Below are positions 19,220 through 20,720 of a DNA stretch of 38,154 bases, in pieces. The DNA comes from a virus: positions 1-38,154 of IMG/VR virus record IMGVR_UViG_3300045988_064121; one strand, given 5' to 3'. The position numbers were made by a program, and so were the translations under genes. The notes beneath the pieces were generated by a model. The model worked only from the letters and a program-made list of their open reading frames with translations, was not told the origin of the DNA and made no database searches. Numbering within the stretch: the stretch's first letter is position 1; the number at the start of each line of letters is the position of its first letter.

Positions 19220-19265
19220 ATCCTCTTTATGTGCTATAATCGGCATATAAGGAGGATTTTTTTTA
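19220..19265 (+). terminator. Strong intrinsic terminator whose 3' arm contains the endolysin SD; extended -10 (TGcTATAAT, 19232-19240) in the loop
   Basis: 15-bp stem, 19220-19234 with 19243-19257 (two G-U pairs), then T8. Confidence 0.7.
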
Positions 19266-20720
19266 ATAGATTATCAAAGTTTTAAAAACGCCGTATTAGG
19301 CAAAAGAATTGACATTGATGGAGCTTATGGTTCACAGTGTTGGGATGGTGCAATGTATTGGTACGAGAAACTAGGATACCCAAGAATTAGTTGTACAGTC
19401 AGTAAATACGCTAAAGATATTTGGATATACAGAAAGACAAATGGTATTTTAAGAAACAGTATAGAAGTATCTGTATATAAACCCGGTGATATTGTTGTGT
19501 TTAAAGAAGTGCCAAATGTTACACCATATTCGCATATTGCTATCTTTGATTCAGATATTGACGGCAAATATGGTTGGTTTTTAGGTCAAAATCAAGGTGG
19601 TGTAGGAGGAGCATTTAATTTATGTAAATTCCCATACAGTGCCACATACGATACAGGATTTAGACCTAAATGTTTAGTGAATCAAACATCTAACACTACA
19701 TATGATGTCAATAAATTGGTATCAGAGCATGCATTAGCCACACTTACAGTTGACGCAGTAGCAATTAGACAAAGCTCACCAAACGGAGCAGTTATCAAAC
19801 GTGTAAATACAGGCTTTCAATTTGAGTATTACTATAAAGTTGTCGCAAATGGGCATAGATGGGTCGTAAATAAAGATAAGACTCAATTTATGGCTATTTC
19901 TAATTCAGAAACTCAAGGTAAAGAATTGTGGGCAACATTTTCAGAAATTAAAGAAGAAACTAAGCCAACTCCAACACCTACAGAAAAGCCAGCTGAAAAA
20001 GTTGATTACACAAAGAATGTAAAAGGATACGGTGTTGATGTTTCAGAACACAACACAGATATAAATGTATCAAAATATGATTTCATTATTATTCGTGCTT
20101 GTTACGGCGAAAACACAGATGAGAAGTTTGAGAGCTTTGTAAAAGCTTGTGAAAGTGCAAATGTTCCTTATGGTGTATACGTGTATGATTATGCACTAAA
20201 TGATGATGAAGCAAAAGCAGAAGCAAATTACATTCTAAACTTAATTAAAGATAAAGATATTCAAATGGGCGTTTGGTTTGATATGGAAGATGCAGATGGA
20301 TATAAAAAGAAAAATGGTGTATTAACAAAAGAAAGATGTACCAACTCATGCAAGATATTTTGCGATATTCTAAAAGAAAAAGGATACTACACAGGTGTTT
20401 ATACCTCTACTTCTTGGATTGGAACTTATGTTGATACAGACTATCCTTTATGGATTGCAAATTGGGGTACAAATGATGGAACGATTCAATCGGACCAATC
20501 AGATAAAGCAGTGATGTATCAATATACATCAAATCCGATTGATAAGGATGTAATATATCACAATATTGATTTTTATAAGTCAAATCCAAAAAAAGAAGAA
20601 ATTAAAAAAGATGATTCAAGTAATGATTCAAAAAACGATAAAATTAATGTAAATGGAATCAATCAGATTATTGCTTTGATTTTAAAAATATTAAAAAAGG
20701 TGTCGAAACTATTTAAATAG
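19266..20720 (+). CDS. Endolysin: CHAP - SH3b-like - PT linker - GH25 muramidase - amphipathic C-terminal tail; proposed ATA start
   Basis: CHAP Cys motif DGAYGSQCWDG is encoded at about 19320-19350, upstream of the first ATG (19353). His motif YSHIAIFD. GH25 motif YGVDVSEHN...GVYVYDY...WFDMED. GGAGG at 19251-19255, ATA at 19266. Confidence 0.85.
   Translation: MDYQSFKNAVLGKRIDIDGAYGSQCWDGAMYWYEKLGYPRISCTVSKYAKDIWIYRKTNGILRNSIEVSVYKPGDIVVFKEVPNVTPYSHIAIFDSDIDGKYGWFLGQNQGGVGGAFNLCKFPYSATYDTGFRPKCLVNQTSNTTYDVNKLVSEHALATLTVDAVAIRQSSPNGAVIKRVNTGFQFEYYYKVVANGHRWVVNKDKTQFMAISNSETQGKELWATFSEIKEETKPTPTPTEKPAEKVDYTKNVKGYGVDVSEHNTDINVSKYDFIIIRACYGENTDEKFESFVKACESANVPYGVYVYDYALNDDEAKAEANYILNLIKDKDIQMGVWFDMEDADGYKKKNGVLTKERCTNSCKIFCDILKEKGYYTGVYTSTSWIGTYVDTDYPLWIANWGTNDGTIQSDQSDKAVMYQYTSNPIDKDVIYHNIDFYKSNPKKEEIKKDDSSNDSKNDKINVNGINQIIALILKILKKVSKLFK

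Follow-up and report, generated by a model that had tools for sequence, protein, structure and literature searches.

An initiator-derived tRNA(UAU) and a predicted AUA start codon in the late genes of a temperate gut phage, with a hairpin masking the Shine-Dalgarno sequence of its endolysin

The subject of this report is a 38,154-nucleotide (nt) stretch of viral DNA (IMG/VR virus record IMGVR_UViG_3300045988_064121, positions 1 to 38,154), hereafter the window, and the way in which its endolysin and other late genes are started. The window belongs to a temperate siphovirus of an Erysipelotrichaceae-type gut bacterium. All coordinates are those of the whole window, and where relatives have to be told apart, related loci carry L numbers and database proteins P numbers. 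The endolysin coding sequence lies on the plus strand at 19266..20720 (484 codons and a stop), begins with ATA, and contains a CHAP domain at ~19320-19580 and a GH25 domain at ~20034-20546. Its leader, on the same strand, holds a Shine-Dalgarno (SD) sequence, AAGGAGG (19249..19255), which forms part of the 3' arm of a hairpin (19220..19257), a T8 tract (19257..19264) that serves as both terminator tail and spacer between SD and start, and a candidate promoter element, the extended -10 sequence TGTGcTATAAT (19230..19240), at the top of the stem and in the loop. A gene for an initiator-derived tRNA with the anticodon UAU lies at 34519..34594, also on the plus strand.

The endolysin frame follows a TAA stop at 19248-19250, opens at 19251, and reads GGA GGA TTT TTT TTA ATA GAT TAT; the first in-frame ATG, GTG, or TTG is the ATG at 19353. 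The CHAP nucleophile motif IDIDGAYGSQCWDGAMYWY is encoded in this frame at 19308-19364, and the catalytic cysteine, TGT 19338-19340 within DIDGAYGSQCWDGA, lies 5' of that ATG, where the original prediction had placed it. When the N-terminal 150 amino acids were scanned alone, the Pfam CHAP profile (PF05257) matched at 29.5 bits against a cutoff of 26, over residues 24-110 of the 19251 frame, beginning 11 residues before Met 19353. A scan of the whole endolysin listed no CHAP match at E <= 0.01 and returned GH25 muramidase (PF01183) at 80.7 bits, covering profile positions 1-178 of 180. Alignments to PHROG endolysin profiles begin at residues 7-10 of the 19251 frame, and those to the solved CHAP domains of LytN and lysin L2 begin at residue 8 of the ATA-started protein and take in its QC and H (SH) motifs. 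In the Pfam, PHROG, and Protein Data Bank alignments alike, CHAP similarity begins before 19353, as it should if the upstream codons belong to the enzyme. CHAP-GH25 endolysins are themselves an ordinary type. At the C-terminus (20660-20717), a Lys-rich amphipathic helix, INQIIALILKILKKVSKLFK, is kept in relatives.

The DNA of relatives was drawn from IMG/VR, JGI, ENA, and Logan assemblies and comprised 19 distinct leader haplotypes from ~35 independent assemblies; one leader DNA search pattern matched the AAAGGAGG form alone. AAGGAGG and the ATA at 19266..19268 were retained in 19/19 haplotypes. The spacer between them, 10 nt in the window, was 7, 8, 9, 10, or 11 nt long, in the forms ATTTTTA, ATATTTTA, ATTTTTTA, ATTTTTAA, ATTTTTTTA, TTTTTTTTA, ATTTTATTA, ATTTTTTTTA, and ATTTTTTATTA. 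Because these indels disregard the reading frame, the stretch from SD to ATA is non-coding. One haplotype, L040, has an in-frame TAA immediately 5' of the ATA, which is therefore the first sense codon there. The ATG of four homologues (L005, P0044, P0055, and P0119) aligns exactly with the endolysin ATA: L005 reads GGAGGAAGAGTAA-ATG-AAT-TAT against ATA-GAT-TAT in the window, P0044 begins MNYNDFK, and P0055 and P0119 begin MTYQEFK. From the ATA to Met 19353, the ratio of non-synonymous to synonymous polymorphism (pN/pS) was 0.30, variable sites numbered 10, 7, and 18 at codon positions 1, 2, and 3, respectively, and QCWDG was invariant, and we conclude from these three features that this segment is translated. 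The invariance of the ATA, its alignment with the ATG of homologues, and the L040 stop bear out the earlier proposal, and on this comparative evidence the endolysin starts at ATA 19266. Two other explanations of the arrangement were discarded: a sequencing or assembly error at the ATA or the T8, since the same arrangement recurs in the ~35 assemblies and 19 haplotypes, and a start at TTA 19263, since L040 carries TAA at that codon.

A different possibility is that the lysin is made from Met 19353 as a GH25-only enzyme, the upstream 29 codons being a decaying CHAP remnant. Dozens of clusters are indeed called as MYWYEK..., and GH25 alone can be a functional lysin domain. Decay sits poorly, however, with the low pN/pS, with 18/35 variable sites at third codon positions, and with the invariant QCWDG. 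There is also no SD before 19353, whereas a strong, conserved one precedes the ATA, and indels of any length occur upstream of the ATA, whereas the sole downstream indel, a 12-nt duplication just 3' of it in L026 and L031, is in frame. We regard a GH25-only product as very improbable.

Database calls for this protein are of two kinds. A protein search returned dozens of endolysin clusters, 85-96% identical, in almost all of which the call begins at the internal Met, so that being without a canonical start is a property of the clade; as truncated calls, dozens of these clusters are without the catalytic Cys. The N-termini of P0005-P0057 and P0121 were systematically truncated in public gene calls for this phage group. 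Longer calls also exist: P0001-P0003 were called as MINILFMCYNRHIRRIF-LIDYQSF, and others as MAYKGGFF-LIKYQDF and MCYNWHIKEVF-LIDYQSF. We rejected these 498-, 492-, and 586-residue proteins (P0001-4 and P0020) as gene-caller artefacts, arising because spacer indels open frames by accident. They could instead be taken as the products of slippage, transcriptional or ribosomal, on the T8, which would fuse the lysin frame to ATG 19211 or 19229 and give 498-residue proteins; relatives with T7 do have an open frame from ATG 19211, in an ATGA overlap with the upstream stop, and this is the frame called as MINILFMCYNRHIRRIF-LIDYQSF. The T run is not conserved, though (relatives show ATATTTT, TTTTATT, T5, T6, T7, and T8), L038 and the form-B leaders (those with an inserted pair in the hairpin stem, described below) either lack the upstream ATG frame or have it closed, and no SD precedes ATG 19211 or 19229. 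Slippage is accordingly the least probable of the readings that we weighed. A megablast search of the lysin region against GenBank phages gave no match, and a scan of GTDB genomes with the CHAP domain gave a single distant one, in a Longicatena metagenome-assembled genome, with an ATG start.

The hairpin stands directly after the upstream gene (18777-19214), whose TGA at 19212 lies 5 nt before the stem. It has 16 pairs including G.U, of which 5 are G:C, closed by a 6-nt loop (19236-19241), with a predicted energy of -23.6 kcal/mol (z = -6.2; 0/200 shuffles fold as well). It sequesters the SD, and together with the T8 it looks like an intrinsic terminator for that gene, being the top-ranked terminator-like site in a scan of 17000-22500. 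The original prediction had described a 15-bp terminator stem; its overlap with the SD was confirmed, and the length was corrected to 16 pairs. The opening of the frame at 19251, the SD-positioned ATA 19266, the T8, and the TGcTATAAT in the loop were all found in the sequence as described. AAGGAGG occurs 13 times in the window, always on the plus strand, against 3.8 expected. Among the other ATA-start and ATG-start leaders of the window that were tested, none had a comparable structure, and an Rfam scan gave no match at the lysin leader.

Pairing of the SD is what relatives conserve. Haplotypes were folded one by one, as a MAFFT alignment lost the register of the arms through a paired insertion, and the SD was fully paired in 19/19, in the same fold, at -18 to -28.6 kcal/mol. 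Form-B leaders carry one more T in the 5' arm, matched by one more A in the 3' arm, which amounts to an inserted T:A pair. The basal pair changes from T-A to A-T in L003, L004, and L032. At 19231, G to A turns G.U into A-U, and at 19242, G to A turns U.G into U-A; the 19231 change in L040 keeps the R of TRTGnTATAAT. In several haplotypes, the spacer itself pairs with an A-rich segment past the upstream stop (AAAUAU/AUAUUU, AAAAAA/UUUUUU), lengthening the helix to 20-22 bp and removing the free U-tail. The T-tract ranges from T4 to T8 among relatives and is often interrupted (e.g., ATATTTT and TTTTATT), which counts against termination as the conserved function. With SD pairing kept and the U-tail lost, masking of the SD is conserved and termination is not. 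The earlier claim that the hairpin both terminates read-through transcripts and masks the SD is thus upheld for masking, through the 19/19 pairing and the compensatory changes; a terminator-like appearance holds in the window, and conservation of the T-tract does not hold.

The element in the loop is of the Gram-positive type TRTGnTATAAT, and at 19230-19240 it is invariant in the 19 haplotypes, amid neighbours in which 18/29 third codon positions vary. This pattern suggests a sequence-specific constraint on the loop. Two observations weigh against a promoter there: TGNTATAAT is not enriched in the window (4 copies against 4.2 expected), and no conserved -35 element was found across the haplotypes. 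On another account, the hairpin would do no more than terminate the tail or accessory operon; that it overlaps the SD and has a -10-like loop would be incidental, and the lysin would be translated from read-through RNA after breathing of the helix or its cleavage, for example by RNase III. The canonical stem and T8 of the window and the chance frequency of TGNTATAAT agree with this, and a perfect stem of 16-22 bp would be a plausible substrate for a double-strand RNase. Yet the U-tract is degraded in many relatives while pairing of the SD remains perfect in all 19, spacer mutations that extend pairing with the A-rich segment select the helix over the U-tail, and the bases of the loop and -10 are invariant where their neighbours vary. 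We therefore hold the terminator-only account to be possible and somewhat doubtful. Melting of the hairpin by a ribosome terminating at TGA 19212 was considered as a way of freeing the SD and set aside: with the stop 5 nt before the stem, such a ribosome would probably open the basal pairs alone.

The endolysin shares its start codon with other genes. We scanned the window for in-frame ATA, ATT, ATC, and CTG codons that are SD-positioned upstream of the first canonical start. ATA was flagged at 649, 3462, 7630, 10206, 11674, 14250, and 19266, the early half of the genome and the minus strand having no such site; no ATT, ATC, or CTG was flagged in the window, where ATT is three times commoner than ATA. 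The portal gene (649..2052, plus strand, as are all those that follow) starts at ATA 649, 6 nt after AGGAGG and one codon after the TerL stop, TAA 643-645. The phrog_24103 gene (3462..4070) starts at ATA 3462, 7 nt after AGGAGG, and the major head protein gene (phrog_422; 7630..8499) at ATA 7630, 9 nt after AAGGAGG and the second codon after a stop. In the tape measure gene (11674..14253), ATA 11674 is the first codon after an in-frame TGA, and the first ATG is 140 codons downstream. The tail-region gene phrog_3099 (10206..10712) has ATA 10206 or, alternatively, ATA 10227. The gene for the distal tail protein (Dit; 14250..15122) is ambiguous, ATA 14250 (GGAGG and 9 nt) being the probable start and TTG 14256 the alternative.

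Profile alignments agree with these starts. Residue 3 of the major head protein falls on profile position 3, its first canonical GTG being residue 18, and residue 4 of the 3462 product falls on profile position 4. For the portal, the 10206 gene, and the tape measure, the alignments reach upstream of the first canonical start, by 6 residues before the first ATG in the case of 10206. Alignments to distant full-length homologues of the portal start at query residues 1-7, and a portal cluster of 1406 members is called from TTG 742, 31 codons too late. In conservation counts from 38 portal-centred IMG/VR relatives, ATA was retained at the portal in 39/39, at the capsid gene in 34/34, and at the tape measure in 27/27. 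The 3462 gene has ATA in 17 loci and ATG in 4, at the same base, and this exchange identifies the position as a start codon. By these alignments and counts, at least six late genes start with ATA: the portal, 3462, major capsid, 10206, tape measure, and endolysin genes. The idea of ATA as a weak-start device particular to the lysin has to be given up, as at least five other late genes use it, including that of the major capsid protein.

The tRNA gene at 34519-34594 is the single tRNA gene in the window, and it is found where the replication and packaging modules adjoin, after a 108-residue sigma-like gene and before phrog_918, a ParB-like nuclease, a radical-SAM-like open reading frame (ORF), TerS, and TerL. 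ARAGORN calls it and labels it tRNA-Ile; it matches Rfam tRNA at 49.1 bits, has an encoded CCA, and is flanked by terminator-like hairpins. Its body resembles that of an initiator. G2:C71, C3:G70, and A73, which are the formyltransferase determinants known from the RajBhandary laboratory, are invariant across tRNA(UAU) variants. The D stem, GAGC/GCUC with A11:U24, is identical to that of Escherichia coli metZ; the anticodon stem is UCGGU/GCCGA, the variable loop is AGGUC, and the CCA is templated. Positions 1 and 72 form an A1xA72 mismatch in the window tRNA and in all 9 lineage variants, flagged as non-standard by cmscan, and a 1:72 mismatch is present in 98.6% of bacterial initiators (PMC5143459). 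In a search of 5426 E. coli genomes at E <= 10, every listed match was a tRNA-Met, with a median of 4 places per genome, in agreement with the four E. coli initiator genes; one inspected match was the three-gene metZWV cluster between mltA and amiC, at 77.9% over 75 nt. The anticodon is one point at which it departs from an initiator, being UAU, in an invariant CUUAUUA loop, in place of CAU. On these features, the tRNA(UAU) is initiator-derived.

Because ARAGORN misses most variants of this tRNA, a BLAST and pattern search was used for the counts. The gene was present at 87-100% identity in 32/32 window-lineage loci reaching far enough upstream. The nine variants include three compensatory pair changes in the anticodon stem, around the invariant loop; 99.5% of cells in the alignment are paired, 6 pairs show double changes, and 0/500 shuffles reach the covariation score, all of which mark a functional RNA under selection. 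Two neighbouring genes deserve mention. The 108-residue protein (34166-34492, plus strand) has weak similarity to sigma-70 region 4 and phage sigma factors and is a candidate late-gene regulator. The 435-residue ORF before TerS (35618-36925, plus strand), which lies ~1 kb away from the tRNA, weakly resembles radical-SAM proteins (20.7 bits, under the cutoff of 29.5) and could be an RNA-modifying enzyme.

We then examined the tRNA and the start codons together across relatives. A generic pattern, combining an initiator-type D arm with a CTTATNA loop, picked out 42 IMG/VR contigs, including every contig with an ATA lysin; the contigs of the ATG lysins L005 and L006 were outside these matches. 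The diverged locus L123 (portal 54% identical) is a prophage of the isolate Amedibacillus sp. YH-ame6 (GCA_053848845.1, contig JBSPEZ010000008.1), of a genus in the Erysipelotrichaceae, and the source of the truncated portal call P0155. Its tRNA(UAU) has A1xA72, a D stem of GAAU/AUUC, A11:U24, and the loop CUUAUUA, and SD-preceded ATA starts were found at its portal, major capsid, tail, and tape measure genes and at one further gene. Residue 2 of its major capsid protein (phrog_422) falls on profile position 2. The same scan as for the window flagged one SD-positioned ATT site in L123. An alignment-based portal scan showed that L123-L130 (portal 55-60% identical) all carry tRNA(UAU). In L123-L126 and L130, an SD-positioned ATA stands at the homologous portal start, L127-L129 are without a canonical start there, and L123-L125 also have ATA at the capsid and/or tape measure genes. 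Conversely, tRNA(UAU) was absent from 33/33 loci with an ATG-start portal (portal 46-49% identical). In L123, tRNA(UAU) is preceded, at a distance of a few kb, by a gene for an RtcB RNA ligase (1235-2419 of that locus), a hint of tRNA repair.

Most ATG-start relatives (L131-L158, L161, and L164) carry an initiator-like tRNA(CAU) within the structural module, mostly ~3.7 kb past the start of the portal gene, with 2.6-6 kb in a few loci. These tRNA(CAU) genes have a 1:72 mismatch and three G:C pairs, and they are probably the ancestors of the anticodon-switched versions. Two further loci show such a switch together with a different start codon. In L163 (IMGVR_UViG_3300029762_000216), an initiator-like tRNA(CGU) with C1xU72 lies at 7389-7464, and ACG starts are found at 3582, 4970, 8134, and 10907 of that locus; for its portal, minor head, major capsid, and phrog_3099 genes, SD and ACG make up the sole possible start. 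In the minor head and major capsid genes, the ACG is the second codon after a stop, and residue 2 of the major capsid protein (phrog_422) falls on profile position 2. In L159 (IMGVR_UViG_3300021399_000523), an initiator-like tRNA(CCU) with C1xU72 lies at 6392-6465 and the tape measure gene starts at AGG 11482; behind its SD it reads AGG TCC GAC GGA, at an N-terminus homologous to the ATA TCA GAC GGA of the window. The L159 tRNA has C11:G24, an exception to purine 11:pyrimidine 24. Similar tRNAs with the anticodons CCU and CGC were found in L160 and L162, respectively. The joint switching of anticodon and start codon in three versions is difficult to account for unless it is the tRNA that decodes the start. 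Genes for initiator-like tRNA(UAU) are also present in unrelated phage contigs (L045, L088, L089, L090/L105, L099, L102, and L107), with GC contents of 0.29-0.64.

From this material we consider it quite probable that the late genes of the window are initiated at AUA by the phage's initiator-type tRNA(UAU), with a hairpin on the lysin that masks the SD in the manner of T4 gene e. Once made, tRNA(UAU) would enter the ribosomal P site at an SD-positioned AUA and, from the P site, start synthesis of the virion and lysis proteins. In the absence of this tRNA, the AUA genes would be poorly translated, so that late proteins would be gated by a phage-owned start codon. The endolysin would have a second lock, its SD lying in the 3' arm of a conserved hairpin of 16-22 bp, and in the window this hairpin probably terminates read-through transcripts. 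The SD would most likely be released by the logic of T4 gene e, through a transcript begun from the loop -10, ~7 nt after that element, near 19247, and thus lacking the 5' arm. In a broader form, which we hold to be likely with slightly less confidence, related temperate gut phages sharing the portal and capsid, including the Amedibacillus prophage, would possess natural orthogonal initiation in the versions UAU/AUA, CGU/ACG, and CCU/AGG, making virion and lysis proteins solely when the private initiator is present, and with the lysin further controlled by the masking hairpin and internal promoter.

The principal competitor to tRNA-driven initiation is that the host initiator tRNA(CAU) reads ATA weakly with the help of a strong SD, ATA thereby acting as a throttle, and that the phage tRNA(UAU) is an elongator for AUA Ile codons. 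AUA makes up ~20% of the Ile codons of the window, phage tRNAs are usually explained by codon supplementation, and the tRNA(UAU) is without the full three G:C pairs of initiators. Near-cognate initiation at AUA amounts to ~7.5-15% of that at AUG in vivo and equals it in an optimised in vitro system (PMC5499595). Against a throttle, capsid, portal, and tape measure proteins need high or stoichiometric expression and yet have ATA in 34/34, 39/39, and 27/27, and the SD-positioned non-canonical starts are almost exclusively ATA, the single ATT being that of L123. Against an elongator, the tRNA(UAU) has the 1:72 mismatch, the formylase determinants, and A11:U24, and its E. coli likeness is to initiator genes alone. 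Against the competitor as a whole stands the joint switching of CGU with ACG and CCU with AGG, ACG being very poor with the normal initiator (PMC5499595). The competitor is therefore unlikely overall; for AUA alone, it keeps some probability as the weaker rival, since the ordinary initiator does read this codon in vivo. With a matching UAU tRNA and many late genes on ATA, the codon is probably private and efficiently read, and the earlier notion of ATA as a throttle on lysis timing fits poorly with a window that has a UAU initiator-derived tRNA. Of the original interpretation as a whole, the ATA start and the SD-masking hairpin stand; conserved termination and a weak start specific to the lysin do not.

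Several observations weigh against initiation by the phage tRNA. A UAU anticodon should abolish recognition by methionyl-tRNA synthetase, and the U found at position 37 excludes the modified nucleoside N6-threonylcarbamoyladenosine. There is a bulge in the T stem, and the T loop reads UGCAAAU. Where initiators have three G:C pairs in the anticodon stem, the window tRNA has G-C, G-C, and U.G, and the majority variant, like L123, has A-U, G-C, and U.G, with one G:C pair; we accordingly file the tRNA as initiator-derived and not as a canonical tRNAfMet. The majority variant is also not called by ARAGORN. In the short loci of L160 and L162, which offer little DNA, no AGG and no GCG starts, respectively, were found. 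The available fragments of the unrelated tRNA(UAU) contigs gave no convincing ATA starts, the few SD and ATA sites flagged being short ORFs or adjoining an ATG; the sole candidate in L107 is one short ORF, and in L088, U1 pairs with A72, and the TerL, portal, and capsid genes begin with ATG. The support for tRNA-driven initiation is entirely comparative, and the tRNA(UAU)/ATA lineages may form one clade, in which case the co-occurrence of tRNA and start codon could reflect a single origin. Finally, AUA with an optimised initiation region can be translated by the ordinary initiator in vitro (PMC5499595).

Other features of the window complete the picture. TerL is split over the window ends (37407-38154 and 1-645; C-terminal part 25-642), with a start at ATG 37407/37410 that overlaps the TerS stop, and this split identifies the window as a circularly permuted whole phage genome. 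A type II hammerhead ribozyme (25422-25488, plus strand; 39.4 bits against a gathering threshold of 37) lies in the early region between small ORFs, and it and the tRNA alone were above threshold in an Rfam scan of the window. The lysin gene is followed by a bidirectional terminator (20727-20749) and then by TGTTATAAT at 20759-20767. Beyond these, two tiny membrane-peptide genes (20934-21192), of 40 residues from ATG 20934 and 29 residues from ATG 21103, are kept in relatives and resemble a moron or toxin-like cassette with transcription of its own.

If the tRNA works as proposed, the identity of the start codon would be a programmable, virus-owned regulatory channel, of a kind so far built in the laboratory alone. 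It would explain "odd" phage tRNAs now labelled tRNA-Ile, tRNA-Thr, or tRNA-Arg, would offer a simple way to silence capsid and lysis genes in lysogens and early in infection, and may shield late translation from host shut-off or tRNA-targeting nucleases. Standard gene callers truncate genes with ATA starts, so that annotations, structure predictions, and lysin mining are systematically wrong for these phages. Since the Amedibacillus sp. YH-ame6 isolate carries such a prophage, the idea is directly testable. Both orthogonal expression and phage biocontainment in Gram-positive bacteria might draw on the tRNA and on SD-AUA, SD-ACG, and SD-AGG cassettes as candidate tools.

Among known systems, the AUU start of infC, which encodes initiation factor 3 (IF3), is likewise a conserved non-canonical AUN codon behind a normal SD. 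The infC mechanism, however, depends on poor recognition by the normal initiator and on IF3 proofreading, whereas here a matching anticodon is present and many highly expressed genes are involved. A second likeness is to stop-codon recoding with suppressor tRNAs, which Ivanova in 2014 and Borges in 2022 are said to have described in crAss-like and Lak phages. There, too, a codon that abounds in late structural and lysis genes takes on a new meaning through a phage tRNA, and this combination makes late expression conditional on a translation component of the phage's own. Recoding of that kind concerns stop codons and elongation, whereas the present case concerns an initiation codon and an initiator-type tRNA. 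The late ORFs of the window contain no in-frame stops under table 11, they give full-length profile matches, and the sole tRNA has the anticodon UAU and is not a suppressor. Mitochondria initiate at AUA with a tRNA-Met carrying 5-formylcytidine at position 34, and thus also read AUA through a dedicated feature of the initiator anticodon (PMC2582600). The mitochondrial tRNA keeps the anticodon CAU, relies on base modification, and decodes internal AUA as Met, whereas the phage anticodon is genetically UAU and internal AUA aligns with Ile or Val in homologues.

For the leader, the closest parallel is T4 gene e, where masking of the ribosome-binding site in long transcripts reduces lysozyme synthesis by a factor of 100, and RNA that can be translated is supplied by late promoters located just upstream (PMC3014915). 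As in gene e, and also in soc, 49, and I-TevI, the SD of a lysis enzyme is held in a stable stem and a promoter-like element could supply RNA without the 5' arm (PMC3014915). By this analogy, the idea of a hairpin with an internal promoter, put forward in the original prediction, is of a known kind. The phage leader differs from gene e in having a candidate sigma-A-type extended -10 in the loop, a terminator-like stem, an AUA start, and a Gram-positive host.

The nearest likeness to the proposed start-codon system is found in engineered initiators. When the anticodon of an initiator tRNA is altered, initiation takes place at the complementary codon; the new anticodon determines with which amino acid the tRNA is charged, and formylation can occur (10.64898/2025.12.21.695813, which cites Chattapadhyay and Schulman, 1990, and amber-initiator phage biocontainment). 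In engineered E. coli initiators (amber tRNA(CUA), i-tRNA(AAC), and anticodon-switched tRNAfMet carrying Val, Phe, or Ile), the altered anticodon confines initiation to a matching, otherwise unused start after an SD, and genes become dependent on the tRNA (10.64898/2025.12.21.695813, 10.1101/2021.05.25.445580). In full-text literature searches, no account was found of a natural phage tRNA of the initiator type in which an anticodon other than CAU matches recoded starts of late genes. The private start-codon system would thus be categorically new, on condition of experimental confirmation: the engineered initiators are man-made, whereas the phage tRNAs and recoded starts are natural, conserved across diverged lineages, and present in several versions of anticodon and codon.

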